This document shows, one piece after another, positions 1-32,000 of a DNA stretch of 32,000 bases. The notes under the pieces are model-generated. The model was given only the letters and a program-made list of their open reading frames with translations, did not search any database and had not been told where the DNA came from. Numbering within the stretch: position 1 is the first letter of the stretch; the number at the start of each line of letters is the position of its first letter. This stretch comes from Candidatus Saccharimonadota bacterium (GTDB lineage Bacteria > Bacteroidota > Bacteroidia > Cytophagales > Amoebophilaceae): assembly GCF_965196625.1 (NCBI RefSeq), contig NZ_OZ239769.1, positions 30,001 through 62,000 of the forward strand, written 5' to 3'. The position numbers and the translations under genes were made by a program.

Positions 1-1
1 A

Positions 2-8091: not shown

Positions 8092-8126
8092 GCAAATATA
8101 AATAGAAATTTTACCATAAATTAATT

Positions 8127-9020: not shown

Positions 9021-9099
9021 ACATTTTTCTAGCTGAATCGACAATAGATTTTTGGCTGGTTCATTATTTTGAAGAAATTTTAATATAATTCTATATTAT

Positions 9100-11826: not shown

Positions 11827-11834
11827 AACATCTA
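11827..11834. repeat. Target-site duplication AACATCTA (left copy)
   Basis: Identical 8-mer lies immediately outside both IS terminal inverted repeats. Confidence 0.85.
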
Positions 11835-13166: not shown

Positions 13167-13174
13167 AACATCTA
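13167..13174. repeat. Target-site duplication AACATCTA (right copy)
   Basis: See the left copy at 11827..11834. Confidence 0.85.
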
Positions 13175-15737: not shown

Positions 15738-15740
15738 ATT

Positions 15741-15786
15741 ATATTCTTATGTTTCAAAAACGTTCGTTTATGAAACATAAGAATAT
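15741..15786. promoter_or_regulatory. Perfect 16-bp inverted repeat (ATATTCTTATGTTTCA N14 TGAAACATAAGAATAT) 4 bp upstream of the recombinase start; candidate recombinase binding/crossover or autoregulatory site
   Basis: Read directly. The spacer aaaacgttcgttta is itself partly palindromic (aaacg tt cgttt). Confidence 0.55.
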
Positions 15787-16038
15787 TAACCAACAATACC
15801 GCATTATAAAATGCTATTTTTGTTACTTATTCAGTAACATAATCTATGTCACAAATAGGTATATAAAAATTTGATTTAGAAACTAATTTAGTGGGCCGTT
15901 AGTATGCAAAATATTTATATGTTGTATGGGTATAGTAGTTACTTGCAGATTTTGTAATAATTTGTAAAATTATGTAATAATTGTTAAGTTGTTACAGTAA
16001 TAAAAATTAGCTTTAATTTAAACTAAACATAAATTGAA

Positions 16039-17027: not shown

Positions 17028-17810
17028 ATGACGCATTCTATCAATATTAAAGGTTTAAAATTTTTGTTTTACATTATCATACCAGTTTCGTTAATGGGAA
17101 TGATGAATCCACCAGATCCGTATGTTCAAGCACGTGATGCGCTTATAGCAGATTATAATGGTCTACAGGGAAATAATAATCTACTTTTGGCTAATTATAA
17201 TCGTGAATTGTTAAACTCCTTTAACTCTATGCGTAATGGTGCTAATGACGCTGCCATCTGGGCTAACAATCAGCCTGCTCTTGCTGAAACTGATTCTAGA
17301 ATCGCACGTACTATATATGATAGAATCGTTGTCATGTTTGGTTACATTGCTCAACATGCTCAAAATGCTCAGGCTCGTGCAGCAGCTGTTCGAGCTAATG
17401 TGCAAGGTGTAGCAGCACTACCTATTGATCAGGCAATTTTAGGTGATTTAAATTTAGCGAGTGGTGTTAGAAGACGAGCTGAAGAGTCTTTTAATAATGC
17501 TGAAGGTGAATCTAATAGGGCTCAAAACTCTGCACAAGAGGCTAATGCTAGACATGCTAATATTCAACCAATAATAAATCGTATGAATCCTCCAATCCTT
17601 GGTATGCATTACACTAGGGAGCATATTGCGAATTATCGTGCGAATCATGCCAATATTCTAACTGAGTTTAATCAAGCTAATATATCTGCTTTTGAGGCTA
17701 AAACTCATGCTAATAATGTCCATAATCAGGTTAATCTTCTTAATACGCTAATTCAGAATATGATTATAATAGGTAATAGGCGTGGTATTGCTAACTTTCC
17801 ACAAAATTAA
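17028..17810 (+). CDS. Asn/Ala-rich secreted or membrane-anchored protein of unknown function
   Basis: Intact 260-aa ORF with a hydrophobic N-terminus (LKFLFYIIIPVSLMGMM), then helical N/A/Q-rich sequence. I recognise no family. Confidence 0.55.
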   Translation: MTHSINIKGLKFLFYIIIPVSLMGMMNPPDPYVQARDALIADYNGLQGNNNLLLANYNRELLNSFNSMRNGANDAAIWANNQPALAETDSRIARTIYDRIVVMFGYIAQHAQNAQARAAAVRANVQGVAALPIDQAILGDLNLASGVRRRAEESFNNAEGESNRAQNSAQEANARHANIQPIINRMNPPILGMHYTREHIANYRANHANILTEFNQANISAFEAKTHANNVHNQVNLLNTLIQNMIIIGNRRGIANFPQN

Positions 17811-17900
17811 TCGTGTCCGCCACTAGTGTGGCTGGGAACGCATTTTTTCTATTCTGTATCCATTCAATCCACACCCACAGAAGTAGGTTATATCTAGAAA

Positions 17901-17926
17901 AGAAACTGCATTTGACTGCAGTTTCT
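17901..17926. terminator. 10-bp perfect hairpin (agaaactgca tttgac tgcagtttct) between convergent genes; read on the minus strand it is followed by TTTTCT
   Basis: Read directly. It lies downstream of both 17028..17810 (+) and 18106..18747 (-). Confidence 0.5.
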
Positions 17927-17975
17927 TAGAAGTACTGTGGCAGAAAATGCGTTTTTTCTGGTTTTTTTACTAAAA

Positions 17976-18018
17976 TTTAGGGCAAAATTAGGCGTTTATG
18001 CTAAAAATTTGCCCTAAA
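17976..18018. repeat. 11-bp inverted repeat tttagggcaaa / tttgccctaaa with a 21-nt loop
   Basis: Read directly. Confidence 0.6.
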
Positions 18019-18105
18019 ATCATGCTTGAAACAGGTTGAAAAGGAAAGTTTAGCCACAGCGCTGAATGGATACATTGCTATAGCCTCCACAATAAATCAA
18101 ACAAA

Positions 18106-18747
18106 TTAGATTTCTATTCCGACATATTTATCGATATGTGCTATTTTCCTTTTTCTATAATTTTTATATTCACAATCAATATAATTTGATTTAATATCCC
18201 TAGCAATAGACCTCTGTAGTTGTAAAAGGAAATTAATAGCCTGACCAGTTAAGTTCTGTTGTAGTTGCTCATTCCAGTCTTTTCCTGAAGTTACAGATAT
18301 TTTAGTAGGTTGCATACCTTCTTTTTTAGAAATATTTTCTATTAATTTTTGCATACGTTGACCTTCTTGATCTATATCAAAAGCCAATACTACTTCTTGG
18401 TTATGTTGTTTAGCCCCTTTTATAAGCGTACTGATTTCTTTAGCGATACTACTAGAAATAGTATCACAAGTAGCGATATACATCGTATTATCTTTTTCTG
18501 CATACAACTGTTTATAACTTAAAGCATCTATAGGACTCTCTGTGAGCACAATCTTTTGCACAAGAAAATTGGGATGCTTTAATACAGCTAACCCTCTAGA
18601 AAGCCCTTTTTGAAAGTATGTTCTACTTTTTATTTGCCCAGTGTTACCTTTAAAAAACTGGTAGGAAATAGTGTTACACATCGTTCCATTTCCCTGGTTA
18701 TCCAATCCTTGATAGAGACCAAATACCGCTTTTCTACCTACTTGCAA
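18106..18747 (-). pseudogene. Toprim-domain segment, probably the frameshifted C-terminal part of the upstream relaxase-DUF3991-Toprim gene
   Basis: Toprim pattern LTESPIDALSY ... VVLAFDIDQEGQRM. The ORF starts at a TTG and overlaps the upstream ORF by 10 nt. Its frame stays open upstream of that TTG. Confidence 0.6.
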
Positions 18748-20024
18748 AGAGGTGCCGATGTATAAGGCCCATAGATTGAGGCTGCAATACCACGGGCTGT
18801 TAAGTAATTTTCTTCTTTTTTTGAATCAATGCTATAAAAGTATGCTTTGGCTAGTTCAAGTGAAAATTGATTTTTTATGACTGTATCATCCAAATGCATA
18901 CTAGTTAGGCCACGAATGGACTTATAGCTGAAGCCGCGCTTTAACATAAAATCTACTATAGTTCCTTTGTCTTTATCATCTACTAGAGAGCTATAGGTCC
19001 AGTGGCCACTGTTATTTAGGCCATTTTTAATCAATATTTTGTCTTCATCTTTATCCATTACTGCCCATAATCTTGAGCTTTTATCTTTATTAAGCTGATA
19101 GCCCATAGAAGCAGCATGCTGTATTAAATTTACTTCTCGTTTGATACGATCTAAATCTGATCGTATGTTTTCTTTGATGATATTGCTATAGGTTTTTTCT
19201 GTTTCTAATGCTTTTATTTTCTGTTTTTCAGCTTCATAAGCATACGCACAAAGTTGATTAGATATATTCTGATGTACTTGTTTAAAGTTTAGTAGATTTG
19301 GCCTGGGTATGTCTGATGTAACAGCCAGCACTGTCTCCTGCTTTTTTTTAAGTGTTTTTTGTCTAAATTGACTGATAGGTATATGGCTACGTTCTGTTAG
19401 ATGCCTAGCTATCCCTCGATTTAATCCAAATTGTTTCATAGCGTTTGCATACCTATCTTGATAAGCCATCAGCATATGAGACCCTTCCATAAATCTTTTC
19501 GCACTTAATCTACCATCTTTACAGATCGGGACTACTACGCAGTGTATATGAGGTGTTTTTTCATCCCTATGTAGCGTGAAGCGAACAATATTTTCTGAGC
19601 CAAACTCCCGACAAGTAAACCCGTAATTTACTCTTTTCCAATCGTTAAATAAATTTTCATTTTGCTCAATTTCTTTCATCCGTTCATGGCTGCCGGTCAA
19701 TATAATACCTAAGGCTTTAACGGCATCTTTTCTAATTTCTTTGTTACCTTTGTATCCTGATTGTATTCTATTATGAATATCTTTTGCTAGGGTTTCATGT
19801 TTTAGAGGCGATAATTCTTCATTTAAATGCGTGCGTGTATGATCAATATGGGGGCCTAATAATTCACGCATTGCTGGGTCTATATCGTTTTTAAAGTGTG
19901 CTACATTTTGAGTCAAATTTTTTCTGTCTATATGTGTGCCTATTCTGCCTGTTTCTTTATATTTAGTGATGTGTAGTACGGCATATTGTATGGGTTGTAT
20001 CGTATATTGCTGCATATAAATCAT
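18738..20024 (-). CDS. MobV (Mob_Pre)-family relaxase with a C-terminal DUF3991-like region
   Basis: Motif I region THIDRKN...NDIDP and motif III HRDEKTPHIHCVVVPI (HxDE..PHxH). The C-terminal AASMGYQLNKDKSSRLWAVMDKDEDKILIKNG...DKGTIVDFMLKRGFSYKSI plus the final YLTARGI fit the DUF3991 pattern that normally precedes a Toprim domain. Confidence 0.8.
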   Translation of the reverse strand: MIYMQQYTIQPIQYAVLHITKYKETGRIGTHIDRKNLTQNVAHFKNDIDPAMRELLGPHIDHTRTHLNEELSPLKHETLAKDIHNRIQSGYKGNKEIRKDAVKALGIILTGSHERMKEIEQNENLFNDWKRVNYGFTCREFGSENIVRFTLHRDEKTPHIHCVVVPICKDGRLSAKRFMEGSHMLMAYQDRYANAMKQFGLNRGIARHLTERSHIPISQFRQKTLKKKQETVLAVTSDIPRPNLLNFKQVHQNISNQLCAYAYEAEKQKIKALETEKTYSNIIKENIRSDLDRIKREVNLIQHAASMGYQLNKDKSSRLWAVMDKDEDKILIKNGLNNSGHWTYSSLVDDKDKGTIVDFMLKRGFSYKSIRGLTSMHLDDTVIKNQFSLELAKAYFYSIDSKKEENYLTARGIAASIYGPYTSAPLCK

Positions 20025-20094
20025 GGGAAATTTCTTTCCCCTTTGCTTGATTATAGATTAACGAAATCGGAGAATAGGGCATTTGTGTGGAATA

Positions 20095-20130
20095 CACTTT
20101 ACGTAGTAAAGTATAGTGTGCTATACTTTT
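20095..20130 (+). other. Candidate MOBV-type oriT: overlapping hairpins ACTTTAC-gta-GTAAAGT (20096..20112) and AAAGTATAG-tgtg-CTATACTTT (20108..20129)
   Basis: Read directly, 71 bp upstream of the relaxase start. It closely resembles, as far as I recall it, the pMV158/MobM oriT core (ACTTTATGAATATAAAGTATAGTGTG/TTATACTTTA). Confidence 0.55.
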
Positions 20131-20234
20131 GAAAAAGTAGCCTACATTTATATGTAAGCTGTATGGGAAAAAGTAGTTATTTTTTACGTAGTAATGTTAC
20201 GTTGCTTTAATAAGATTTCAACAAGAGATTTATT

Positions 20235-21875
20235 TTACAACTTTATATGCTCTTCATGTATTTCATACGCCCAGTTATCTATCATCCTGGTTTCCTCATT
20301 GAAGTTAATGCCCAGTAGTATAATGGCTTTTTGCCTGAGTAAATAAGGTTTATAGTAGCCGTTTGATTTGATTTGTTCTAAAGCTATTTTCCCGGTAGAT
20401 CTATACTTTATCTCTATAATATAAATGGCTGTTTCTGATTCTAAAACGATATCCGATCTCCCTTGGCTAGAAGCGGACTCACTATGCATATGCATTTTTC
20501 TCCCACCTAAAAATCCCAGCCCTTGCAGTAACATATGTAAATTACTGTGGTATTGTTTTTCTTGCTTGGTATCTATATAATAGGGCAGTGTGGCAAAGGC
20601 TGTATTGATATATTCTATAAACATTTCAATTTTTTTGTCAGCTAGTGCCTTTCTAATTTTATCTCGCTCTTGTAAAAAATAATCTTTTACACTCTTTTCT
20701 AAACTGGACTTGATACTTTTCTGGAAGGAGGCTTCTATTTCTTTATTGGGAAACTTTAATGTATATAGATCAGTAGATTCATCATAATTGTCAATAGTGA
20801 GATATCCGGTTTGAAACATCAGAGATTTTAAACTAATCTCATTCCTACTTTCTGTATACATTAAGTCATCTCTGGTAGCTTCTATTTGGAGATTATTTAC
20901 CTGAAGATCAAACCTGTCAGGATCTGCTAACATTTGGTTAATGAGTAAACTTGGACTACCGGATTCGTACCAGTAGTTTGCTAATTCTCCAGTATTTAAA
21001 AACTTTAATGTAGACCAAGGATTATATACACTTATACCATCTTGGTGGAATTTATATCCATTGTAATAGGTTGCTATGTGGCGCATAACTTCTAGATCGG
21101 TTATGTTTTTATCCGCTTTTTTGCCCCATTGTACACCAATGGTATGTATGTTATCTGAAAAAGTATATACAATCTCTTCTTGCGTATATCCAAACATGGC
21201 ATCTGCATCTTTGGCAATAGTAATATCGTTTAAATGATTGGCCCCTGAAAATATATCCGATAAACTAAACTTACTAACACCTGTGATAAAGGTGAGTTGA
21301 AAATATTTGTTGAGGGATTTTAAAGTCATAAAGAAATCTTTCATCACTTTGATATTGGCCTTTTCTAGGTCAGAACCTTTGGTTAGGTGAACTATGGACG
21401 CGTCATATTCGTCTATCAATACTACTATTTTGGATTCATAATCATTCCCTAATTTAGTCATATCTTTAACTAAATTAGACAGTTTTGTTTTGAGAACCTG
21501 TCCAGTAAGTGTCAACTTGTGTGATGAAGCAACACACGTAAGTAAATCTTCTAAGGATAATTCAAGTAAATCAGGTGTGTTATTGTTTAACACTGAAAGG
21601 TCTAAATTAATAACTGGATATTTCTTCCACTGATAGCCATTTTCTTTTTTGCCTATATGATAATCTTTAAACACTTCTTGCTCTCCACTACATATAGTAT
21701 CTAGTGTATCAATAAACAGTGATTTCCCAAATCTACGAGGCCGGGCTATAAATACAGGGTTTTCTTTTTCTATTAGCTCTTGAGCATAGCGGGTTTTATC
21801 TACATAGTAGCCTGTTCGGATAACCCTTTCAACATCTGAATAGCCAATAGGAAGTGCATTAATCTTACGCATCAT
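20235..21875 (-). CDS. Predicted AAA-ATPase-like N-terminal domain fused to a PD-(D/E)XK nuclease-like C-terminal domain (AAA-ATPase_like + PDDEXK_9 architecture)
   Basis: N-terminus LPIGYSDVERVIRTGYYVDKTRY...FIARPRRFGKSLF, then VVLIDEYD. C-terminus GRSDIVLESETAIYIIEIKY (D..E.K nuclease motif). I prefer the start at ATG 21875 (MMRKINALPIG), 1 nt after the upstream stop, to the track start at 21920. Confidence 0.8.
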   Translation of the reverse strand: MMRKINALPIGYSDVERVIRTGYYVDKTRYAQELIEKENPVFIARPRRFGKSLFIDTLDTICSGEQEVFKDYHIGKKENGYQWKKYPVINLDLSVLNNNTPDLLELSLEDLLTCVASSHKLTLTGQVLKTKLSNLVKDMTKLGNDYESKIVVLIDEYDASIVHLTKGSDLEKANIKVMKDFFMTLKSLNKYFQLTFITGVSKFSLSDIFSGANHLNDITIAKDADAMFGYTQEEIVYTFSDNIHTIGVQWGKKADKNITDLEVMRHIATYYNGYKFHQDGISVYNPWSTLKFLNTGELANYWYESGSPSLLINQMLADPDRFDLQVNNLQIEATRDDLMYTESRNEISLKSLMFQTGYLTIDNYDESTDLYTLKFPNKEIEASFQKSIKSSLEKSVKDYFLQERDKIRKALADKKIEMFIEYINTAFATLPYYIDTKQEKQYHSNLHMLLQGLGFLGGRKMHMHSESASSQGRSDIVLESETAIYIIEIKYRSTGKIALEQIKSNGYYKPYLLRQKAIILLGINFNEETRMIDNWAYEIHEEHIKL

Positions 21876-21876
21876 T

Positions 21877-22818
21877 TTATCTTTTTTGATTTGTTTTTCG
21901 TTCTCTTTCGTTGATTTCATATTCTATCATACTTTTCCAAGCCAACCGATCTTGTTCTGCTGCGATAGAAATCCGGTCAACTTTAGTTAAAGTAGAAGCC
22001 TTCTCTCGTAATTTTACAGCTTTTTCTTTAAGTTTTGTTGAGGCAATAATATTTTTTTGCAGCAAATTATAAGCTGCTAGCCGTTCATTGACCTTAAGAC
22101 CAGCTGCATCATCATCTAATAGATACTGAATTTCTTTATTATTGGCTAGTAACTCATCGGCTTCTCTTTGATAAGCGTCTGCTAGGAGTAACTGTTTGGT
22201 ATGGGCATATTCCCCGACCGTACGATCATATTGAATTGATTTTTCGATGTCCTTATTAAGTTTTTTCAAATCGGTATATTTTCCATTTGCTGCTTTGATA
22301 CCTACTAATTTACCTGTATTTTTCAGGGATCTATTCACTGAATGAATGGTTTGTTTTTCTCTTGCACAGCTATATTTCATGTTCTTTTTGAGTTTATGGG
22401 TATATTTTGTTTCCGGTATATATCGAGCAGGGTTAAAACTAATACCTAATAAATCTTCTGTTTGACCTAAGATCATTTTTTTAAAGCTCATATTCTTGAG
22501 TCTTTTACCTAAGTTAACCGCATCTCTTACCGCTCTACCAGCCTTTTCTATGGCTCTTTTGGTTTCCATAGCGGTCCTGGCACTATCCCTGATTTTATCA
22601 AAAGTGCTTTGTTCTGTTTTTGCAATCGTTTTAAGAAGGTCTACCTGTTTGTCTTGCTTGCCAAATAGTTTTTTTATGGTGCTACCAAATGGTATATAAT
22701 CTAACGTACTATTCACCACATCTTTCAGGGTCTCTTTGGCTTTATCCCATGTATCTCCTGCATAAGCTACGGTAGCGGTTGATAGAAAGACTAGCCATAA
22801 ATATCTTTTAAAACTCAT
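21877..22818 (-). CDS. Secreted coiled-coil protein in the tra operon (no family assignment)
   Basis: Internal ATG 22818 gives a signal peptide MSFKRYLWLVFLSTATVAYA and forms an ATGA overlap with the TraM-like stop (22815..22817). The rest is Lys/Glu-rich and helical. Confidence 0.6.
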   Translation of the reverse strand: MSFKRYLWLVFLSTATVAYAGDTWDKAKETLKDVVNSTLDYIPFGSTIKKLFGKQDKQVDLLKTIAKTEQSTFDKIRDSARTAMETKRAIEKAGRAVRDAVNLGKRLKNMSFKKMILGQTEDLLGISFNPARYIPETKYTHKLKKNMKYSCAREKQTIHSVNRSLKNTGKLVGIKAANGKYTDLKKLNKDIEKSIQYDRTVGEYAHTKQLLLADAYQREADELLANNKEIQYLLDDDAAGLKVNERLAAYNLLQKNIIASTKLKEKAVKLREKASTLTKVDRISIAAEQDRLAWKSMIEYEINERERKTNQKR

Positions 22819-23588
22819 CTGTTTTTTAATTGTTTTCCTACACAAACATATACCTCTCTACCCTTATGCAGTTTAAAGAACTTGGTTTTAGTTACATCTT
22901 TAATGAATTGGGTAGCCATTTTACTTATTTCACTGGCTAAGCCTGAATCAGCTTGATCGGTGATCATATCCAAAACTTTATGACTGTTGTTTTCAATAAT
23001 CGGATTAACCCCTTCACAGAAGAGACCAGGTAAGAAATCGGTATCGTAACAAGCTAAAGAGGCCGGGAAGGTCCGATCTAGATACTGGGCTACATGGATG
23101 GCTATTAATATTCTATTTTTAGCAAATTTGGCTTTCCCATATAAAACTGTACCCGCTGGTAACACGGTATCATTAATGATACAATTTTCTTCTAGTTTAA
23201 GGATTACAGAACTTTCGTCTGTTACCTTTTGATTTTCATCTAAGTGGGCACGGTAGAAGGTATTTAATATTTCTTCTTGTGGGTTATCTTGATAGGAAAT
23301 AAAACCTTGGCTTGGTGTGGTTCGAACAGTAGTTTTTTTAGGTAATTTCGTGAACATAGATTTCTTTTTTTTAGGCTTTTTAGGTTTTGCTAAAGGTGTT
23401 AGGTTAAAGAGACCAGCCAGTGACGAGATCCCTTTTCTAGAAGTTTTTTTCAGGAGCGATTCTTTTTTACCAGATAGTTCTTCATCATACTCGTCAAGTA
23501 ATGTTTTGGCATCATTCTTTTTAACCTCTTGAAAATCTGGAACTTTTACGTTTACAGGATTAAAATTTTCTATTTTGTGTTTTCCCAC
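22815..23588 (-). CDS. traM: TraM-like conjugative-transposon protein (C-terminal TraM domain; no canonical start for its TM anchor)
   Basis: VILKLEENCIINDTVLPAGTVLYGKAKFAKNRILIAIHVAQYLDRTFPASLACYDTDFLPGLF...KFFKLHKGREVYV follows the Bacteroides TraM C-terminal pattern (V.LRL...IP.G....G.A....RL.I.I......PV.L.VYD.DG..G). Called start is GTG. Confidence 0.7.
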   Translation of the reverse strand: MGKHKIENFNPVNVKVPDFQEVKKNDAKTLLDEYDEELSGKKESLLKKTSRKGISSLAGLFNLTPLAKPKKPKKKKSMFTKLPKKTTVRTTPSQGFISYQDNPQEEILNTFYRAHLDENQKVTDESSVILKLEENCIINDTVLPAGTVLYGKAKFAKNRILIAIHVAQYLDRTFPASLACYDTDFLPGLFCEGVNPIIENNSHKVLDMITDQADSGLASEISKMATQFIKDVTKTKFFKLHKGREVYVCVGKQLKNR

Positions 23589-23605
23589 AAAGACCTTTCC
23601 AAAGG

Positions 23606-24430
23606 TTACAATAGCACCAATGACAACCAGTAATAGATATTTACGCTACCATAGTAGGGTGCTTCTAAAAGCAGACGCGCAGGTATAGATAAGTTCACCA
23701 AGCGACTACCAGATTGCTCAATAAAACCCACTAAGAGTTTTCGATTAATAGATGTAGTATAGCGCGGTAAGACGTATACAAACATTTTACTGCTATAAGC
23801 GGGTATGACTCGATCTTCTAAGCCATATATAGGAAAGACGAGTTTTCTGCTTTTTTTACTGTTGTAGTGCTGAAAGTTGGTTTCAAATAGTTCAAAGGTT
23901 AGACCTGTTTTGTTCTCCAAATATACTTTTAGATAGGTATACTCCTCATCATGAAATAGATTAGTAAGGATAAGGTCATAGTACCTGGTATGCTTGCCTA
24001 TATTAAAATAGGTTTGCTCCATCGATCGAATCTGTTTTATTTTTTGTAATACCTGATGGTCTAATGTAGGATGGGGGCTAGCCTCTTCTTCTCCTTTGCT
24101 TGTAAAATCATAGACTTCTTGCGGTTTATGGGTTGCACGCAATAGACCGTTAAAGACCTTATTACCTTGCTTAAAGGTAACCACTATAGAAGTAGCACTT
24201 GTACCTGGTTTGGTAGCCCGCAATAAAACCATGTTTTGGTTGATATTAGCGATATAATCTTTATTGGGCATGATGACCTCTTTAATAGCCTCATCAAACA
24301 ATAGCATCGAGGAAAATCGATGCGCAACTTCTATCTCCTCTAAAGGACTATAACTGGTTATTTTTTCTGCCGCTTGAGCAGTCAAACAAAAAAGACAACT
24401 TATTAGTAGGCTACGTATTATCTTGCACAT
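23606..24430 (-). CDS. traN: TraN-like conjugative-transposon protein
   Basis: Signal peptide from the internal Met (MCKIIRSLLISCLFCLTAQA). Blocks IEVAHRFSSMLLFDEAIKEV, MVLLRATKPGTSATSIVVTF, YLENKTGLTFELFETNF and IEQSGSRLVNLSIPARLLLEA parallel the CTnDOT TraN pattern. Confidence 0.7.
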   Translation of the reverse strand: MCKIIRSLLISCLFCLTAQAAEKITSYSPLEEIEVAHRFSSMLLFDEAIKEVIMPNKDYIANINQNMVLLRATKPGTSATSIVVTFKQGNKVFNGLLRATHKPQEVYDFTSKGEEEASPHPTLDHQVLQKIKQIRSMEQTYFNIGKHTRYYDLILTNLFHDEEYTYLKVYLENKTGLTFELFETNFQHYNSKKSRKLVFPIYGLEDRVIPAYSSKMFVYVLPRYTTSINRKLLVGFIEQSGSRLVNLSIPARLLLEAPYYGSVNIYYWLSLVLL

Positions 24431-25070
24431 ATTCACGCTTATTTTTAGGGTCAACAAAAGTAAAATCAGTAATGAGTAATCCATAGGGATTTTCTTTGCT
24501 TCTGTGCGTTGTTTTCACTTTAAAATAAACCCCTCCGGGTAGTTCTTTATGATCTAGGCCGCTAAGCTTTTTGCCTTCTAGCCCTAAGAACTGCAAAGTA
24601 GTTGTATAAAAAGCTACTACTTCGTAAGGATAATCCATCAGATTGGTCTCTATCTGTTCAACTGACAAGATGGATATACCGTTATAGCTTTTATATACCT
24701 GAAATACCTCCTCTTCGTTGTATTTACTTTTTAGAAAAAGACCACTTTTTTTATCCATAACCTGTAAACAAGCCAGTAAGTTACCTTGATAGGTATATTC
24801 ATTATGCTCAAAAGCATTTTTTAGAAACTGCATGGTAAAATTTTCTATTTCAAAGGGTTCTCGCCGAATGGATTGTTTTCTTTTCCCGCTACAATAGCTT
24901 CCTTCTGGCGTTACAAAATAGGTTAAGTCACTGTTTATAGCACCGACCCATTTGGCAGCAAAGAAACAAGTTAAGCCCGTTAAAATAGCAACAACCCCTA
25001 TACATAAATATTGTATACGCCCGATCAGCCTACTGAGCTTATAGCTATTGAATGCATTTACGTTAACCAT
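24411..25070 (-). CDS. traK: TraK-like conjugative-transposon protein
   Basis: ~210 aa, a single N-terminal TM, then a globular domain ending in ENPYGLLITDFTFV (compare TraK ..NPNGFIIEDFAIV). Located directly after the TraJ-like gene with an 8-nt overlap. Confidence 0.75.
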   Translation of the reverse strand: MVNVNAFNSYKLSRLIGRIQYLCIGVVAILTGLTCFFAAKWVGAINSDLTYFVTPEGSYCSGKRKQSIRREPFEIENFTMQFLKNAFEHNEYTYQGNLLACLQVMDKKSGLFLKSKYNEEEVFQVYKSYNGISILSVEQIETNLMDYPYEVVAFYTTTLQFLGLEGKKLSGLDHKELPGGVYFKVKTTHRSKENPYGLLITDFTFVDPKNKREYVQDNT

Positions 25071-25908
25071 TTTTATTGAAACTCTCTTTTTTAAGTTTAT
25101 AAATCTGTTTACCAGTTGCTACGATTTGATGTATGGCAAAGCTGGTTACGGTGGTAAAGATCATGCCGCCCATCATCTCTCCTATGTATAATCCTGTAAT
25201 GGTACCTACAATTAAATACATCGCTACTAATGCTACAGACCCTATTAAGTTTAACATATCGCATCCCGCTACCGTTTTGATATTTAACTGAATAATGCTT
25301 AGGTCTATTAACGCCATGGTAAAACCCCACATAAAGAAAGAGAGGTGCAAGCTAAACCAATTGGCAGCTATTTTTTGATACCTACCTGGTAAAGCACTCA
25401 TAGCAATGGCTAGTGGTCCTATTTGGGTAGAAAAAACAAGTAAATAACCCCTTATGGCGTGCATTACCCCTCTGGAAAACATTTGTAAAAAGCCCAATAC
25501 AAGATTTTTGATTTTATTGAGTATTGATTGAATGATATAGTTACCTGATCCCCAAAACCCATCTGCTTGATTGGTTTCCAGGTTTGCTTTTTGTGCTTCT
25601 AAGTATTTTTGCATCGCTTGATTCAAACCCAATTCGTCTATTAACGCACTGGTTATATGATCTAATACTTGATTGATCTCTTCGAAATGGCACAGCAATA
25701 GTGCCAATACCATCCCTTTGGCGATATTCTCTATAATGGCTGCTTTACTACTGACTTCATTTAATCCATCTTTGATGTATCGCACGCAAAAATCAATACT
25801 TATAAAGGTAGGCAGTAAGAATAGCGCAATCTCTGTTGTGGTCTTTGTAACTTGCCGCATAACACTCCAAACTTCACTAGAAACATAGTGCACAGATAGA
25901 TATTCCAT
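25063..25908 (-). CDS. traJ: TraJ-like polytopic membrane protein (VirB6-like role)
   Basis: Multi-TM protein positioned between the TraG and TraK homologues, as in CTnDOT-type operons. Confidence 0.65.
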   Translation of the reverse strand: MEYLSVHYVSSEVWSVMRQVTKTTTEIALFLLPTFISIDFCVRYIKDGLNEVSSKAAIIENIAKGMVLALLLCHFEEINQVLDHITSALIDELGLNQAMQKYLEAQKANLETNQADGFWGSGNYIIQSILNKIKNLVLGFLQMFSRGVMHAIRGYLLVFSTQIGPLAIAMSALPGRYQKIAANWFSLHLSFFMWGFTMALIDLSIIQLNIKTVAGCDMLNLIGSVALVAMYLIVGTITGLYIGEMMGGMIFTTVTSFAIHQIVATGKQIYKLKKESFNKNG

Positions 25909-25910
25909 GG

Positions 25911-28334
25911 CTATTTAGCTTGTAGTTTGCGTTGTCCGTCTACCCACTCAGCAATCCCTAATCGATCATCTCCTTTCGCTTGAATCAGCCTGGTAATAGC
26001 GTTTCTTTCATCTGGCCTAGAGGTGAGTAGTGCATGTTCCCAAAGTGATGTGTGCAGCAGCCATATGTTAGCCTCTCCCATTTCTTTGATAAAAACTTCT
26101 CTATATCCACTTGACCCATTTTTTCGTCTTAAGCTTTCATATTTTTCCCTTTCAAAGGGAGTCATGCCTATAAATGCTCCAATATCTTCCCTACTCGATT
26201 TTTTCTCATTGTAAAGCAGTATAAAAGTAGAGGCATTGTTTTTCATCGCACCAGCTATTTTAGAGGCTTTGATTTCATCTATGTTTTGGGTAATGATCCG
26301 AATGGAAGTTTTGGTTTTTCTGCCTTTTCTAAAAAAGGCTTCAATGTTTTCTTCGGCATAGTCATCTAACATCGTCCACCCTTCTTCAATGTCAATAAAT
26401 TTAGCTACGTCAGGATATTGGGCAACCATTTCAAAGGCAAACTCAAATAGCACTTGTACGACAAGGGGATAAAGTTTAGGATTGTTTTTGATTGCTTCTA
26501 ACTCAAAACAAATGAGTTTATGGTCTTCTAAATAGACCTGCTCGTAGGAATTAAAATGCGCTTTATAGATCCCATGGGCAAAAGGATGGAGTACAATGAA
26601 AAATTCATGAAATGGGAACAATCTATCACCAGTTAATCTTTGAATCTGTTTGTCTTTCTGATCTACTAGTTGTTTGAGATAGTTATAAAATCCAGTTAAG
26701 CTCGGTACAGAGGCCTTATCTAGAGTAGCATAATAGCCTGGTATCCATTCAAATAGCAGCGCTTTCTCTACTTCACTCATGGGATTTGCATTTAAATCTC
26801 CCTTCCATATTTTTCCAATCAGTTGTACCAAAAAAGTTACTTTATTGATATCTGGCTTAAATAAGCCATCTGCTTCAGGTTTGATCAGAAATGGATTTAA
26901 ATGGAGTGGTGTTTCGGCATTGTATTCGATGTATTTCCCGCCTAATATTTGAAAAAGTCTTCTATAGGTACCTCCACTATCTATTACAATCACTATATGA
27001 CCTGCTTGAAACCGATCCTTAATCATTTTTCCATTAAAAAAAGATTTACCAGATCCAGAAGGACCAAAAACAAAAGCATTTTGGTTGTCTAAGTCGAGAT
27101 TAAATGGATCATAATAGATGGGTGTTTCTTGTCTACTCGCCAGTAGTATACCACTATCACTACTGCTTCTAGGCGTAATCATATTGAAATAGGCCAGTGC
27201 AGTTTTAAGTGCCATCGGTTGACCCCGGTAAAGCTGATGGCCATTGCCGGGTATCGCTGAAAAATATAGATTAACGGTATCATAGTCCTCTACGAAAGGG
27301 GCGATATCTAGTGTTTTAAATACTTTTTTAACCTTTTCAATGTTATCAGCTAATTGTCTTGGATCTACTTCATAAAGGATAACCAGATAGTTCAAGGTTA
27401 CGATCACTTCTTCTTGTGTTCTAATGGCTGATTCAAAGGCAATCAACGCTTCCATATCTTGGTTTACATTACGAATGGCTCGGCCACTGCGTTTAGTCGC
27501 TTGGCTCCATTCTAATGCTTTGGTACGGCTTTGTAAAAAATCTTCTGTATTTTGAATGGCAATGGCTTGTACAACAATATGGGGACAGTCCATATAGTGG
27601 CTTAACGCCCAGGTAAAAGGTACGGTTACCCCTCCCCCATTGCCTAACCCGTTTTTACTGGTGTAGTCTGGTTTACTCGATTGGCTTTGCATCGATACAA
27701 TCGCTACCTGCTTATTACCAATTTTAAAAAATCCTTTTTGATTGGTCAGGCCATGCTCTAAACCATCTATGGTGCCACTAAAATCTAAGTTGAGCCAGGC
27801 ATAAAGCAAGTTAATATTATCTGATGCAGTCAACTGTCTATAGTGCCAACCATCTGGAAAGGCAGATTCTAACTCTAGGCTACATTTTTTTACTTGATCT
27901 ATTGTTTTATTGAGTTCTGCCAGTGGATGTTTAAAGCAACCTTTCCCACAAGAAAAAGTAGTCGTATGCGGCTCTATGCTATGGGTAGTAAGCCTACATA
28001 TGACGAATAGATAGGTTACATGGTTTAAAAAAATATGTCCATTATAGTGTTCAATCTGCTTTTGATGAAAAAAGTTGTAGTCATTTTGAGTTTCTATATA
28101 AAATGTTTTATTGGAATAGCTATCTAATTGTTGTATAACAGTTCCAATAGGAAATTTTCGAATGGTCTGGGCTAGGGTATCTATACAATTTTTATAGGTT
28201 CCCTCTCCTACCCCTTCATCAGGAAATAAACTCAATTGATAGCCTATGGCTACCGCTCCATCTTCCAAAATGATGGACCCATCTTGAAATTCAGTAATGG
28301 GTAGATAGTTTTCTATATATTTTTCTTGTAACAC
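25911..28334 (-). CDS. traG: TraG-family conjugative-transposon ATPase (VirB4 homologue)
   Basis: 807 aa. Walker A FVFGPSGSGKSF, Walker B-like VIVIDSGG / FIDIEEGW. Size and N-terminal pattern (YLPITEFQDGSIILEDGAVAIGYQLSL) are typical of Bacteroidota TraG. Start is GTG. Confidence 0.9.
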   Translation of the reverse strand: MLQEKYIENYLPITEFQDGSIILEDGAVAIGYQLSLFPDEGVGEGTYKNCIDTLAQTIRKFPIGTVIQQLDSYSNKTFYIETQNDYNFFHQKQIEHYNGHIFLNHVTYLFVICRLTTHSIEPHTTTFSCGKGCFKHPLAELNKTIDQVKKCSLELESAFPDGWHYRQLTASDNINLLYAWLNLDFSGTIDGLEHGLTNQKGFFKIGNKQVAIVSMQSQSSKPDYTSKNGLGNGGGVTVPFTWALSHYMDCPHIVVQAIAIQNTEDFLQSRTKALEWSQATKRSGRAIRNVNQDMEALIAFESAIRTQEEVIVTLNYLVILYEVDPRQLADNIEKVKKVFKTLDIAPFVEDYDTVNLYFSAIPGNGHQLYRGQPMALKTALAYFNMITPRSSSDSGILLASRQETPIYYDPFNLDLDNQNAFVFGPSGSGKSFFNGKMIKDRFQAGHIVIVIDSGGTYRRLFQILGGKYIEYNAETPLHLNPFLIKPEADGLFKPDINKVTFLVQLIGKIWKGDLNANPMSEVEKALLFEWIPGYYATLDKASVPSLTGFYNYLKQLVDQKDKQIQRLTGDRLFPFHEFFIVLHPFAHGIYKAHFNSYEQVYLEDHKLICFELEAIKNNPKLYPLVVQVLFEFAFEMVAQYPDVAKFIDIEEGWTMLDDYAEENIEAFFRKGRKTKTSIRIITQNIDEIKASKIAGAMKNNASTFILLYNEKKSSREDIGAFIGMTPFEREKYESLRRKNGSSGYREVFIKEMGEANIWLLHTSLWEHALLTSRPDERNAITRLIQAKGDDRLGIAEWVDGQRKLQAK

Positions 28335-28621
28335 AGTTTACTGTTTTTTGCGTTCATATACTTCGGTTGCTTGAAATGAAAAGCCATCCAAGAAAACAAA
28401 TAGGTGGGATTTTGGCTTTTTCTAGTAGATCTTAATAGGAGCAATAGTAGAAAACATGAAGCAGGACCGGTTAACATCCATAGCTTACTGATCTTAAAGA
28501 TTTTATTTAAAACCATTAACCCAAAGAGAGAGACCATGCTAAAGAGTACCAGTAGTAATGCTTCATGGGTATAAAGAGGACCTATCATCCCTCTTTTTTC
28601 TATGCTTTTATTAACGATCAT
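28313..28621 (-). CDS. traF: TraF-like small membrane protein (DUF4133, VirB3-like)
   Basis: MIVNKSIEKRGMIGPLYTHEALLLVLF... with two hydrophobic helices. It sits between the TraE-like gene and TraG, with a TAATG stop/start overlap with the TraE-like gene. Confidence 0.65.
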   Translation of the reverse strand: MIVNKSIEKRGMIGPLYTHEALLLVLFSMVSLFGLMVLNKIFKISKLWMLTGPASCFLLLLLLRSTRKSQNPTYLFSWMAFHFKQPKYMNAKNSKLCYKKNI

Positions 28622-28854
28622 TATTGATTACCAAACATATCCATAATTTCTGAAATGATAGAAGAGCAGACAAAGAAAAAGAAAATGCCTACTATCCACC
28701 AGATGGCATAGCTCATTGCTTCCTTTTTATCCCTGCTACTGATAAATTTTGCCGCTACCATCAATCCTGTAACGGTGGCTGCAATAATAAATATGGTGTT
28801 GGTAATACTGCCGGTCCAATCTTTTAATTCTTCTAAATTGTCATGTAATGCCAT
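28621..28854 (-). CDS. traE: TraE-like small membrane protein (DUF4134, pilin/VirB2-like)
   Basis: 77 aa, two TM helices, with the pattern AATVTGLMVAAKFISSRDKKEAMSYAIWWIVGIFFFF similar to DUF4134 (..GA.KVY.KW..GD.D..K.A..W..). Confidence 0.65.
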   Translation of the reverse strand: MALHDNLEELKDWTGSITNTIFIIAATVTGLMVAAKFISSRDKKEAMSYAIWWIVGIFFFFVCSSIISEIMDMFGNQ

Positions 28855-28860
28855 AGATTG

Positions 28861-30276
28861 TTAATGTTTTAAATCAGATATAAGGTTTTTTCGCATCTCC
28901 TTATAGAAATGAATATCGATAGCCGCTAACTGCTCCCTAATATTTTCGATAGTTATTGGTAAATGGCTAAATAATTTAGGCTCCTTATCCACTTCATTAA
29001 GGAATTCAGTTATCGTTTTTGGGTTCTCATCACGCCAAGTAGGTATGTATTTGTTTTCGAAGAAAACAAAACTATTCCTTATGGCAGAGTTTGCTAGGGA
29101 TAATATTTCAGAGGCACGTACAGCCCCTTCAAAACGAGCTTGATTTTCTTTTAAGAATGAATCATAGTCTTTAGCGATTGATGCTATTTTGGTTTTTTCT
29201 TTTTTCTGCTTTAGTAGGTTCTTCATTTTAGCAAGAATTTGTTTAGACGCTTTGATGGTTTTATCTCTGATATCTGGGTCTGTTGTAGTGTAAATTAAAT
29301 CCGAAAGTAATGTTTTATATTCGTTGATCTTGGATGCTAATATGGACAATATTATACTAGAAATATCTACCTGAAGTTTTTCTTTTCGACCACCTGGATG
29401 GATGATAGAGAAACCTACTATTGGCCTGCCAGATAGATTTTCAATAGCTGGGGAGCAACCTATGTAGGTAGTGCCTCCTTGTAACTTTAATGGTCTAGTA
29501 AGTTCATGACTACTTGACGCATCATGTAGGCTACCTGTTACCCCACCTTCAAAATGCCAATCTTCTATAATCCATGCTTCATCACCTATTAAATGGTTAC
29601 CACCTAACGTTAACGCAATATTTTCATTACAGATAATCTGAGCAAAAAATACCCTATCTTGAAGTGGATAATCAGTATTTTCTAATGAAACGGTAGTGGT
29701 ACGTAGTTTACTATTAGAATGATCTTCACTTAATGGCTTTAAAGTTTCTGAAAACTTTGTTTCTTCTTCTTGAATCGATTTTTGTATAGCTTTTTTGTGC
29801 CAAATATATAACCCGTAGGTTGCTAATTTATGGCTAGATTCAGGTGCCTCATTGCCATACTTATCTATCAATAAGGTGTCTAAGGTAATTGTACAATGGC
29901 CACTATCTTCATCAACCGCTGGTATAAAAAATAATGGATAGCCATCATCCTTATAGACAAAATCATGTCCATCCCCTAATAGATCTCGATTTTCTGTTTC
30001 TAAGTGCCCTGAGATGCCTTCTATAGATATCTTTTTAATCCTGAAGCCCATACCATTATTTTTTATATGTTCATTTTCAGATGTAAACAATATATGTATA
30101 GGAATCCTTTGATCTTCAAAATATCCTGTCTGGTTGTCTGACCTAAGTGAAACGGTATAACTCGGTGTCTGTCTTGATAAGTCTTGTTGAGCTCCCCTAT
30201 GGAAAAAACAAGCTTGCAAAGTGTTCAAAATGATCACTAAAAATAGTTTGAATAAATAAAATAATGGATGCATCAT
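28861..30276 (-). CDS. Putative lipoprotein leading the tra operon (two related beta-rich modules plus a helical tail)
   Basis: Signal with a possible lipobox (LNTLQA|C). Segments SENEHIKNNGMGFRIKKISIEGISGHL and NENIALTLGGNHLIGDEAWIIEDWHFEGGVTGSL look like an internal duplication. The stop lies 6 nt before the TraE-like start. Confidence 0.6.
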   Translation of the reverse strand: MMHPLFYLFKLFLVIILNTLQACFFHRGAQQDLSRQTPSYTVSLRSDNQTGYFEDQRIPIHILFTSENEHIKNNGMGFRIKKISIEGISGHLETENRDLLGDGHDFVYKDDGYPLFFIPAVDEDSGHCTITLDTLLIDKYGNEAPESSHKLATYGLYIWHKKAIQKSIQEEETKFSETLKPLSEDHSNSKLRTTTVSLENTDYPLQDRVFFAQIICNENIALTLGGNHLIGDEAWIIEDWHFEGGVTGSLHDASSSHELTRPLKLQGGTTYIGCSPAIENLSGRPIVGFSIIHPGGRKEKLQVDISSIILSILASKINEYKTLLSDLIYTTTDPDIRDKTIKASKQILAKMKNLLKQKKEKTKIASIAKDYDSFLKENQARFEGAVRASEILSLANSAIRNSFVFFENKYIPTWRDENPKTITEFLNEVDKEPKLFSHLPITIENIREQLAAIDIHFYKEMRKNLISDLKH

Positions 30277-30391
30277 TTGAGTATTTATTGAAGGTTTTGA
30301 TAATTAAGATTTATTTAATATTTTTATGTTAAAATGGGTTTGTATAAATATTTATTTTGTATGTAATACCTACATAATTAAATGGGTTAGT

Positions 30392-30972
30392 TTATAGGTT
30401 GTACTGTAAGAAAAGACCCACTAATAATCCGCTAGTTCCTTTATCTTTAAAAAACCCAATACAAGGACCTATTCCTATACCAATAGTCCATTTTGATTGA
30501 AATAAAAAGTATAATGGAGCCCTAAGGTTACTCTGATATCCCACCCATTCCGATTTGGCAATCCAAAAATAATAGCCTGATAAGGACCATATTCTATAAT
30601 AGGTCCTAGAGACAAACTGATGTAATGGTGCGCATTTATAGCACAAAGTGTATATAAAAACGAGGGTGCAATGACCCATCGCATATGTTTTTTATAGTTA
30701 AATTTAACAGGTGAAATACCTCCACTTAAGTGCAAGGCTATCGATGGACTCAGATGCCCATGATAATAGATACCATAACACATCTGATGATCCGGCATTC
30801 TATGCCAAACTAGACCTACAGATTTACAACCTTCTGTATGTCTTAAAAATGGTGATTTAACTTCTTTTACATGACTAACTGTGTAACTAGTATGATTTCC
30901 TAAATCTTCTTTGCCCTGCAAAGGAGTATAAAACATTAAAAGCAGTATAAATATTTTGCGAAAGTATTGCAT
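30392..30972 (-). pseudogene. Signal-peptide protein with beta-strand-like alternating pattern (possible outer-membrane barrel), frameshifted near 30480..30500
   Basis: ORF 30475..30972 ends ..GLHYTFYFNQNGLLV*. The overlapping ORF 30392..30679 continues sensibly in another frame (..KWTIGIGIGPCIGFFKDKGTSGLLVGLFLQYNL*). The junction is at the caaaatgg A-run. Confidence 0.5.
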
Positions 30973-31051: not shown

Positions 31052-32000
31052 ATGAACCAAAATATTTCTATAGTATTTGCTTTTTTGATAGGCTATCAGC
31101 TGTTCTTTTACCTACATCTACTCTATTTAAATGATATAGCCCTTATACCTGATGCATTGGCTACACTCCTATCTTATTGTATAGCTGTGCAACATAACTG
31201 GATGGTGAATAGCCTATACGTACTATGCTTACTCCATTATCAATATGATAAAGTCATTAGGTTGATGGAAAGACTTAAACAAAAATGGCACTTTAACAGT
31301 TTGTTAATATTAGGTTGGGCGGTGCTTTTCTGTTGTTATGTAATGTATTACCCTATATTTTGGGTAAAAGGGAATTTCCATATCTGGTTATATCCCCTAC
31401 TTTTTTTATTAGTTACCTGTGTAATCTCATTGGATAACGATAAAGGGCATTCCCAACTGATCAATCCCACTAAGACGCAAAACAGAGAAAAGAATATCAC
31501 ATTACCTGCAGATAATGGACAATTACCCATTAATAATCCACAAAGGGGGATATACATTTTAGGAAACCAAGGTAGTGGCAAGACGCGCTATGTATTGGAG
31601 CCTATATTATACGCATTGATAAAAAAAGGTTATGCTGGAATCATCTATGATTATGACTTTGAAGGAAGACCCACTGCACTTGATCACAACTACTGTCTTA
31701 CAAAGTTCGCTTTTAACTGTTTTTTACAGTTCTGCGATCCTACTACATTTCAATTCCATAGCATCAATTTTACCTCTCTTAGACATAGTATACGCGTCAA
31801 CCCTATTGCACCAAGATATATTCTAAACAGGGCCTACTTAGAGGAATACACCAGTGTACTATTACATAACCTGGTTCCGGATAAAAAAGATGATTTTTGG
31901 AACCTAAGTACCAAAACATTGCTAAAAGGGATGATTGTTTTTTTGGCTAATAGAAGACCTCGGTGTTGTACCTTACCGCATGTTTTAGTACTGGCTACCA
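31052..32000 (+). CDS. Type IV coupling protein (TraD/VirD4/MobC-like), N-terminal ~316 aa; continues past the right window edge
   Basis: Hand translation from ATG 31052 has no stop to nt 31999. It begins MNQNISIVFAFLIGYQLFFYLHLLYL... (hydrophobic helices), then INNPQRGIYILGNQGSGKTRYVLEPILYALIKKGYAGIIYDYDFEG (Walker A in the T4CP context), later DDFWNLSTKTLLKGMIVFLAN. It is absent from the track, apparently because it lacks a stop codon in the window. Confidence 0.75.
   Translation, partial: MNQNISIVFAFLIGYQLFFYLHLLYLNDIALIPDALATLLSYCIAVQHNWMVNSLYVLCLLHYQYDKVIRLMERLKQKWHFNSLLILGWAVLFCCYVMYYPIFWVKGNFHIWLYPLLFLLVTCVISLDNDKGHSQLINPTKTQNREKNITLPADNGQLPINNPQRGIYILGNQGSGKTRYVLEPILYALIKKGYAGIIYDYDFEGRPTALDHNYCLTKFAFNCFLQFCDPTTFQFHSINFTSLRHSIRVNPIAPRYILNRAYLEEYTSVLLHNLVPDKKDDFWNLSTKTLLKGMIVFLANRRPRCCTLPHVLVLAT

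Follow-up and report, generated by a model that had tools for sequence, protein, structure and literature searches.

The window, by which we mean the whole 32,000-nt stretch of DNA that was analysed, carries on its − strand an ORF of 428 aa whose product belongs to the MobV family of relaxases, and a compact group of inverted repeats lies on the + strand just upstream of this gene (Table 1). The ORF comfortably clears the curated thresholds of two family models: it scores 105 bits on Pfam Mob_Pre (E = 4.4e-30), where 25.5 is required, and 176 bits on the NCBIfam MobV equivalog, where 100 is required. In addition, phmmer aligns it with the crystal-structure chain of MobM (4lvi) at E = 2e-12. 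Both family motifs are present. Motif I reads H31-I-D-R34 (H-x-x-R), and motif III, HRDEKTPHIH at residues 152-161, aligns with HLDESTPHMH of MobM and follows the metal-binding consensus H-x-D-E-x-x-P-H-x-H. Across 29 homologues there is no variation at residues H31, D33, R34, H152, D154, E155, H159 and H161. An earlier interpretation made from the letters of the window, hereafter the sequence-only reading, had named this gene a MobV-family relaxase, and the curated thresholds and the two motifs uphold that assignment. The catalytic histidine of MobM is one that we take to be H22. MobM is known to cut DNA via a histidine, not a tyrosine (PMC5863519), and its residues 1-199 suffice for binding and nicking (PMC3105389).

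Table 1. Genes and sequence elements around the predicted transfer origin (coordinates are those of the window)
Feature	Coordinates	Strand	Evidence or remark
Toprim (primase-like) part of ancestral gene, 213 aa	18106..18747	−	Toprim_2, 6e-15; other frame
MobV relaxase ORF, 428 aa	18738..20024	−	Mob_Pre, NCBIfam MobV and 4lvi matches; likely start 20015
Weak IR3-like extension	20092..20119	+	Read against the description of pMV158 IR3
IR1 hairpin, predicted relaxase-binding	20096..20112	+	ACTTTAC-GTA-GTAAAGT; 7-bp stem, 3-nt loop
IR2 palindrome across predicted nick	20108..20129	+	AAAGTATAG-TGTG-CTATACTTT; 9-bp stem
Nick core ATAGTGTG/CT	20113..20122	+	Predicted nick G20120/C20121, by homology to the mapped pMV158 nick
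Terminator-like hairpin followed by ACTTTTTC	20139..20160	−	75 nt past the stop of the AAA-ATPase gene
Second GAAAAAGTAG copy	20167..20176	+	Repeat finder; alignment with L005
Second IR1-core copy TTTACGTAGTAATGT	20183..20197	+	Repeat finder; no nick sequence 3′ of the copy
AAA-ATPase_like / PDDEXK_9 gene	20235..21920	−	Between oriT and tra genes
Bacteroidota-type mating-pore gene block	21877..30972	−	Pfam and NCBIfam family matches
TraM	22815-23588	−	Passes Pfam cut-off
TraN/DUF4138	23606-24484	−	DUF4138 passes Pfam cut-off
TraK, weak match	24411-25070	−	Below NCBIfam curated cut-off
TraG/VirB4 ATPase	25911-28334	−	P-loop_TraG, 3.9e-58
Coupling-protein gene (VirD4/TraG-D), 5′ part	31265..32000	+	tblastn; continues beyond the window end

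The closest homologue of the relaxase is a 646-aa MobV-Toprim fusion protein (P0001, 86% identity) from the Cardinium endosymbiont of Sogatella furcifera, and its start suggests that translation of the window gene begins at 20015. Cardinium plasmids, Amoebophilus and other Bacteroidota supply further close homologues. The alignment of P0001 with the window occupies two frames: frame −1 for its residues 1-434 and frame −3 for its residues 426-646 (81% identity). The frame switches at TAT-AC-ATC near 18755 (range 18750-18765), where there is an apparent insertion of 2 nt outside homopolymer runs. As a result of this frameshift, the relaxase and Toprim parts form separate ORFs in the window, whereas in the homologues they are fused in a protein of about 640 aa. 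The full-length Mob_Pre-Toprim gene is thus not intact here, and the catalytic domain of the relaxase is unaffected. The frameshift, which is absent from the sequence-only reading, reflects either genuine decay or a fault in the assembly. Unless it is the latter, the relaxase product would lack its Toprim domain, and because of the frameshift the element as a whole may be decaying.

On the other side of the inverted repeats, the AAA-ATPase gene occupies the same syntenic position in the related loci L005-L007, and ORFs tile the interval 20235-28621 almost without gaps. The NCBIfam scores for TraK, TraM, TraN and TraG fall under their curated cut-offs. When searched by tblastn, the coupling proteins of loci L008 and L003 are 59% and 45% identical, respectively, to the product of the gene fragment at the window end. 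As mating-pore and coupling-protein genes are present in the window, we regard the locus as probably part of a conjugative element and not of a small mobilizable plasmid. The window also holds genes for a resolvase, a Mutator-family transposase, a tyrosine recombinase, a VapE-type primase/helicase and a PIF1-type helicase. Since close homologues of the relaxase come from Cardinium and Amoebophilus, the source is most likely a Cardinium-like member of the Amoebophilaceae, a lineage of obligate intracellular symbionts with many degraded mobile elements.

Read from the window, the + strand at 20095-20130 is CACTTTACGTAGTAAAGTATAGTGTGCTATACTTTT. The repeat finder returned the arms of IR1 (ACTTTAC at 20096-20102 and GTAAAGT at 20106-20112, with the loop GTA) and those of IR2 (AAAGTATAG at 20108-20116 and CTATACTTT at 20121-20129), the latter being 100% complementary. 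Because the two repeats overlap at 20108-20112, the hairpins that they can form are mutually exclusive. The MOBV nick core, 5′-TAGTG(T/G)G/(T/C)TA, occurs as ATAGTGTG/CTA at 20113-20123, and the 3′ end of IR1 is separated from the predicted nick by 8 nt. In single-stranded folds the IR2 hairpin is the minimum-energy structure of both strands, with z = -3.4 for the + strand and z = -5.1 for the − strand. A third, weak pairing can be drawn between ATAC (20092-20095) and GTGT (20116-20119) with an ATA bulge, which comprises three Watson-Crick pairs and one G-T pair. It recalls the outer CACAC/GTGTG pairing of pMV158, which also has an ATA bulge, and it differs from the predicted minimum-energy fold. 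Measured from the relaxase ATG at 20024, the start of the motif is 70-71 nt upstream; the distance becomes about 80 nt if translation starts at the ATG at 20015.

Two direct repeats flank these structures. The repeat finder located TTTACGTAGTAA[A/T]GT at 20098 and 20183, with 14/15 positions identical, and GAAAAAGTAG at 20131 and 20167, with 10/10 identical. The sequence-only reading had described both hairpins, with a TGTG loop in the second, as mutually exclusive structures about 71 bp upstream of the relaxase gene and flanked by two pairs of direct repeats; its hairpin coordinates proved exact to the base, and the exclusivity, the distance and the repeats were likewise borne out. It had missed that one of the flanking repeats is part of a terminator-like hairpin: the GAAAAAGTAG copy at 20131-20140 is explained as the complement of the T-tract of that hairpin, which itself appears in the centroid folds of both strands. 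Terminator-like sites number 3, against 0.4 expected. In the 74%-identical relative L005, the alignment shows GAAAAGTA-like sequence at both matching positions, and given this conservation the GAAAAAGTAG pair may be functional. L005 does not share the IR1-core copy at 20183-20197. Matches to a sigma-70-like promoter occur at the frequency seen in shuffled sequence (2 against 2.1), and the promoter consensus of Bacteroidota differs from the sigma-70 type. We rejected the match at 20098-20127 (+) as a promoter, as it faces away from the relaxase gene and such matches are at shuffle-level frequency.

To place the site within the MOBV family, we used the published oligonucleotide sequences of pMV158, the streptococcal prototype of MOBV1 that encodes MobM, as the reference for comparisons. 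The 42-mer ORIT oligonucleotide reads GCACACACTTTATGAATATAAAGTATAGTGTG/TTATACTTTA, the minimal MobM-binding origin consists of IR1 (ACTTTAT-GAAT-ATAAAGT) plus the next 8 nt, and the nick has been mapped to 5′-TAGTGTG/TTA-3′ (PMC3105389). Within the window, the 24-mer of pMV158 IR2 has a single match, at 20107-20130 on the + strand (22/24 identical), and none was found in 100 shuffles; the pattern ACTTTAY-N3-5-RTAAAGTATAGTGTG likewise matches only at 20096-20120 (+) and never in shuffles. The two sites share an identical 14-nt core, TAAAGTATAGTGTG, overlapping inverted repeats (three in pMV158, of which IR3 has only a weak candidate counterpart in the window), a 7-bp IR1 stem that ends 8 nt before the mapped or predicted nick, an IR2 that spans this nick, and a position just upstream of a Mob_Pre relaxase gene. 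Within the aligned site they differ in that the IR1 loop has 3 nt in the window and 4 nt in pMV158, and in that C replaces T on the 3′ side of the nick, giving the dinucleotide G/C in place of G/T. The IR1 stem is preserved in the window by one compensatory pair change (T>C / A>G). The systems around the two sites are also unlike. The window relaxase is distant from MobM, as its phmmer score indicates, and was ancestrally fused to Toprim; pMV158 is mobilizable only, whereas the window element has its own mating-pore genes; and the window site lies opposite the coding strand of its relaxase, with the predicted polarity of transfer relative to the gene reversed.

A blastn search with 20085-20140 against a collection of 72,556 plasmids gave matches in 660 plasmid records, 533 of them typed as mobilizable, with identities of up to 94.6% over 36-37 nt. 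The matched plasmids are mainly from Enterococcus, Staphylococcus, Bacillus and Streptococcus. A megablast search of the same collection with 17800-24500 returned no match. Among the matched plasmids, Bacillus cereus pE33L5 and enterococcal MOBV plasmids share 94.6% identity over 37 nt with the window site, together with the G/C dinucleotide and a stem of the ACTTTAC/GTAAAGT type. They differ in being small rolling-circle or mobilizable plasmids of Firmicutes; in pE33L5 the site points the same way as mobV and lies about 100 nt upstream of it, and the relaxase is 27% identical to that of the window. The 94.6% identity to pE33L5 led us to consider a recent transfer of the site from Firmicutes. 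We discarded this idea, since the relaxase belongs to the Bacteroidota type and relatives within its clade carry graded, covarying versions of the inverted site.

As judged by sequence comparison, then, the site matches a pMV158-family (MOBV) oriT by more than chance. The sequence-only reading had proposed a MOBV-type oriT strongly resembling the pMV158 nick region, had quoted a pMV158 sequence that is identical to the published ORIT oligonucleotide (PMC3105389), and had named alignment to known MOBV origins as a check, with a lack of significant alignment counting against the proposal. Significant alignments exist, and the match to pMV158 IR2, the plasmid matches and the neighbouring MobV gene together support its view.

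The site faces away from its gene, as the + strand carries the motif and the − strand the relaxase gene. In pMV158 the strand that is nicked, upstream of mobM, and then transferred is the coding strand of that gene (PMC5863519), and MobSag of IMESag-rpsI has been shown experimentally to nick the coding strand (PMC5090054). The motif (2227-2263) and mobV (2363-3598) of B. cereus pE33L5 are also on one strand. With the orientation in these three systems established, the statement in the sequence-only reading that the motif is inverted relative to its relaxase gene, which it had made conditional on the orientation of pMV158, holds without the proviso.

Orientation was then surveyed with an 18-nt degenerate core, for which both strands of the 500 nt upstream of the gene were scanned at about 175 loci coding for relatives of the relaxase. 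A genome scan with the single relaxase protein as query had yielded no match, and relatives were then sought by an alignment-based genome scan. At the threshold chosen for the core (at least 15/18), 92.7 kb of control sequence gave 0 matches. Cores at or above this threshold were found upstream of the relaxase gene in 47 loci, which represent 41 distinct upstream regions. Among loci whose relaxase domain shares 38% identity or more with that of the window, 21 distinct upstream regions have an inverted core, 0 have a co-oriented core and 15 lack a core; among these last 15, L005, L171, L172/L173, L174 and L175 retain a recognisable, more diverged inverted site. Below 38% identity, the core is co-oriented in 15 regions and inverted in 5. 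In a neighbour-joining tree of relaxase domains, the inverted loci of the Bacteroidota type form one clade apart from the co-oriented clade of the Firmicutes type, within which a small additional inverted group (L131, L086) is nested. The inverted clade includes loci from Sphingobacterium, Prevotella, Chryseobacterium, Hymenobacteraceae, Cardinium and Amoebophilus. Given 21 inverted against 0 co-oriented regions in a single clade, the inversion is a trait of the clade and is not peculiar to the window. Such a pattern was beyond the reach of the sequence-only reading, which had a single sequence before it. In a limited search of the literature we found no statement of the inverted layout.

We also examined which features of the site are conserved across the family. 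When 27 sites are aligned without gaps, 84% of the cells of the IR2 helix are paired, compared with 23-43% when the partners are slid. Double-sided changes in this helix number 22, against 8.0 +/- 2.4 in shuffles and with 0/500 shuffles reaching the observed value, although relatedness of the sequences, even with no structure, can exceed such shuffles. The G at position -1 is invariant in these 27 sites, the T at -4 is at least 90% conserved, and position -3 is mostly G. At a distance of 6-10 nt, the nick is preceded by the end of a perfect stem of at least 5 bp in 32 of the 38 sites examined (2.7 expected), and the sequence of the stem at the IR1 position varies widely: ACTTTAC, ACTTTAT, GACTTAT, ACTTCG, ACTTTC, GACTTTGC, CACCTTG, CCTTAC and GCATCAC are all represented. 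The conserved part is thus the architecture, a hairpin, about 8 nt and a nick within a palindrome, which fits recognition of single-stranded DNA by the relaxase. The G/C nick dinucleotide of the window is the common form in the clade. The site of the window is fully canonical and is nearer to that of pMV158 than are the sites of its nearest relatives. In L005, the nearest relative for which DNA is available (74% protein identity), a 4-nt deletion has removed AGTG from the nick core, and the nick core of L171 (58% identity) is also altered. With these two cores damaged, it follows that sites in this lineage can decay.

The Cardinium plasmids pCher (NC_018606) and pcBtQ1 and other MobV-Toprim loci of the Amoebophilaceae are also among the closest systems for comparison. 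Their MobV-Toprim relaxases are 47-48% identical to that of the window, and a coupling-protein gene is nearby. On pCher, which counts among the 21 inverted regions, the same inverted layout is found about 100 nt upstream of mobV, with CCTTAT-GAA-ATAAGG followed by CGTAGTGAG/CTACGCC. These systems differ from the window in that the hairpin and palindrome have diverged via covarying changes, the relaxase genes are intact, and the neighbouring position holds a divergent small ORF and then the coupling-protein gene, where the window has the AAA-ATPase gene. The PLSDB gene table gives no oriT feature for this stretch of pCher. The plasmid has been described as cryptic (PMC3486910), and the words relaxase and oriT are absent from the Cardinium genome papers that we checked. 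Origins of the pMV158 family are already well characterised, and apart from its orientation the window site is a textbook example. Resemblance of transfer origins across phyla is an old observation to judge by the title of a 1998 paper by Smith and Parker, which reportedly relates the transfer origin of Bacteroides Tn4555 to a family of Gram-positive plasmids. The Tn4555 relaxase was classed as MobP in a later review.

Taken together, the pMV158-like sequence and the adjacent MobV relaxase gene are best explained if 20092-20129 is an oriT of the pMV158/MOBV family that belongs to a Bacteroidota-type conjugative element in a Cardinium-like (insect) endosymbiont. We place the probability of this reading, which is drawn from sequence comparisons, at about 0.85. 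In the mechanism that we propose, the + strand would extrude the IR1 hairpin on supercoiled or single-stranded DNA, and the MobV relaxase, whose gene starts 70-80 nt from the site on the opposite strand, would bind this hairpin and the next 8 nt. The enzyme would then cut 5′-ATAGTGTG/CT-3′ at 20120/20121 via H31 of the H-x-x-R motif, the presumed counterpart of the catalytic histidine of MobM, and would remain bound to the 5′ end at C20121. The IR2 around the nick may serve in recognition at termination and re-joining, and possibly in binding of duplex DNA. The + strand would be exported 5′ to 3′ by the coupling protein, whose gene begins at about 31265, and by a pore that includes TraG, TraK, TraM and TraN. 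The comparisons establish the sequence and its structural homology, its conservation and covariation across the family, a cognate relaxase whose catalytic motifs are intact, and an inverted layout throughout the clade; the position of the nick on the + strand, the role of the histidine, the polarity of transfer and the present activity of the site are matters that we infer. The nick is assigned to the + strand because the TGTG loop and a well-formed hairpin (3-nt loop) located 8 nt upstream occur only on that strand. As conjugative transfer proceeds with 5′-to-3′ polarity and the site faces away from the relaxase gene, an order of gene entry can be predicted: the leading DNA would run from 20121 upward, with the AAA-ATPase gene first and the tra genes after it. 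The relaxase-primase gene would be the last to enter the recipient, the opposite of pMV158, in which the relaxase gene leads.

The assignment to the + strand bears on one alternative, that the − strand is nicked as the relaxase coding strand is in pMV158, using TACTTTT-TC-AAAAGTA and then TAGCACAC. As IR2 is a perfect palindrome, AAAGTATAG...CTATACTTT is read on both strands, and on the − strand it too is preceded by a 7-bp inverted repeat (20124-20130 / 20133-20139). The loop on that strand is CACA, however, where in the family position -4 is T, position -3 is mostly G and position -1 is invariably G; the preceding hairpin has a loop of 2 nt, which is sterically poor, and is followed by CACAC; and the conserved core is opposite the gene strand in 21/21 relatives of the clade. 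We rejected nicking of the − strand on the basis of the conserved TGTG/TGGG loop and consider it very improbable. A different function for the palindrome, as an operator or promoter element of the relaxase gene in the manner of IR2 and Pmob1 for mobM and not as a nick site, is easier to entertain and still unlikely in our view. The pMV158 oriT overlaps the mobM promoters, and binding of duplex DNA by MobM has been proposed to repress them (PMC5863519). The site in the window sits between the terminator-like hairpin and the relaxase start, a position that should put the relaxase promoter within it or close by. Yet such a role is compatible with oriT function and so is no true alternative, the conserved hairpin with a single-stranded nick core fits recognition of single-stranded DNA, and the one sigma-70-like match over the site points away from the gene, at a frequency no different from shuffles and with a consensus that is not that of Bacteroidota.

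More difficult to set aside, if still less probable than its contrary, is the view that the site is a relic: that it descends from a functional MOBV oriT on an element now decaying in an obligate endosymbiont, where transfer has been lost and too little time has passed for the site to degrade. The frameshift that separates the relaxase from its Toprim part would agree with such a history, as would the nearby transposase, resolvase and integrase genes, the damaged nick cores of the close relatives L005 and L171, and the scores of the tra proteins under curated family cut-offs. Against it, the window site is canonical throughout and resembles that of pMV158 more closely than do the sites of its nearest relatives. 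The catalytic domain of the relaxase is intact with all invariant residues present, and MobM's initial 199 residues are enough for binding and nicking (PMC3105389). The almost gapless tiling of ORFs over 20235-28621 and the presence of a coupling-protein gene also speak against a relic.

If 20092-20129 is indeed a MOBV oriT, it provides a precise predicted origin and nick position for conjugative elements of the Cardinium-type reproductive-manipulator symbionts. The existence of one MOBV branch with a flipped origin bears on how the leading region and the polarity of transfer are predicted from gene order, and it matters for oriT-finding software that presumes the pMV158 layout. It is conceivable, although we hold the proposal as a whole to be rather doubtful, that the inverted layout is ancestral and functionally maintained in a large Bacteroidota MOBV clade, that origins can be recognised across phyla, and that the Cardinium-like element is still competent for transfer. 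Were this so, the MOBV clade with the inverted layout would take in self-transmissible relaxase-primase elements of Cardinium and Amoebophilus, and the relaxase-primase gene would always be the last to enter the recipient, with tra or coupling genes entering first. Furthermore, because the nick region has 36 of 37 bases in common with that of B. cereus pE33L5 and is highly constrained, relaxases of different phyla might recognise each other's origins, in which case mobilization across phyla would be possible.

Close to the predicted oriT of the window is a sequence element that recurs in related loci, in some of them as a pair (see table for coordinates). Of the 10 Amoebophilaceae-clade loci, 7 carry the motif (C/G)AAGC(A/T)AA-GGGAAAGAA at a distance of 7-38 nt upstream of the relaxase start. 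It is seen in the window and in the relaxase loci L003, L008, L171, L172, L176 and L010, with a diverged form, CTAACGAATGGGAAAAAAC, in L010. In four of the motif-bearing loci the motif occurs again, on the other strand and approximately 170-205 nt upstream, and therefore the oriT is flanked by both copies. The motif may serve two divergent operons as a promoter or leader element, or alternatively be a site for an accessory protein.

Two further repeats are found near the relaxase gene. A hairpin, GGGAAA-TTTC-TTTCCC, abuts the annotated start codon, and pairings of a similar kind (GGGAAA...TCCC) occupy the same position in L172, L176 and L010; this hairpin could be a structure for translational control. 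The core of IR1, the hairpin 5′ of the predicted nick, is repeated as TTTACGTAGTAATGT, which matches 14 of the 15 nucleotides of 20098-20112, lacks the nick sequence 3′ of the repeat, and is not conserved in L005, the locus of a 74%-identical relative.

Features of the window and of related relaxase loci
Feature	Locus	Position	Strand	Remark
Paired motif	window	20030-20050	-	
Paired motif, second-copy position	window	20156-20176	+	near-match only
Start-codon hairpin	window	20025-20041		
IR1-like copy	window	20183-20197		
Relaxase-Toprim break	window	18740-18775	-	
AAA-ATPase_like + PDDEXK_9 nuclease-family gene	window	20235-21920	-	between tra block and oriT
Its counterpart	L005	1521-3188		
Cargo/backbone region	window	1-15800		HD-domain protein; PIF1-type helicase with WYL domain; DUF1016 protein; Toprim/VapE primase-helicase; tyrosine recombinase; NUDIX protein; Mutator-family transposase; solute-symporter-like protein; serine resolvase
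Altered nick core	L005	3300-3345		
Altered nick core	L171	about 790-830		
Palindrome	L010	7330-7380		

Putative oriTs in the inverted layout also reside approximately 190-200 nt upstream of the relaxase in four Blautia-type Firmicutes loci (L131, L156, L169 and L086). The relaxases of these loci fall within a Firmicutes clade that is otherwise co-oriented, and this is apparently a second, independent occurrence of the inverted layout.

The AAA-ATPase_like/PDDEXK_9 gene has the same orientation as the relaxase, and its synteny is kept in L005-L007; other relatives carry a small divergent ORF and a coupling-protein gene in its place. The gene content of the cargo/backbone region would fit either a mosaic plasmid or an integrated element. 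The relaxase-Toprim gene, which is a single fused ORF of about 640 aa in all close homologues, is broken in the window into ORFs of 428 and 213 aa by an apparent 2-nt insertion (TAT-AC-ATC), reflecting either pseudogenisation or an assembly error.

In L010, a perfect 20-bp palindrome, AGCTTTAAAGTAAAGCGTAG-CTTA-CTACGCTTTACTTTAAAGCT, is located approximately 70 nt upstream of the relaxase gene, which is 51-55% identical. GCGTAG/CTACGC occurs in it as in the Amoebophilus site, and the palindrome may represent a symmetrised form of the oriT. The two nearest relatives with DNA sequence, L005 and L171, keep the IR1 hairpin and have changed nick cores, that of L005 having lost AGTG through a 4-nt deletion and that of L171 being altered to AAAGTACTATACTATAC. 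These changes suggest that the origins are decaying in this lineage.
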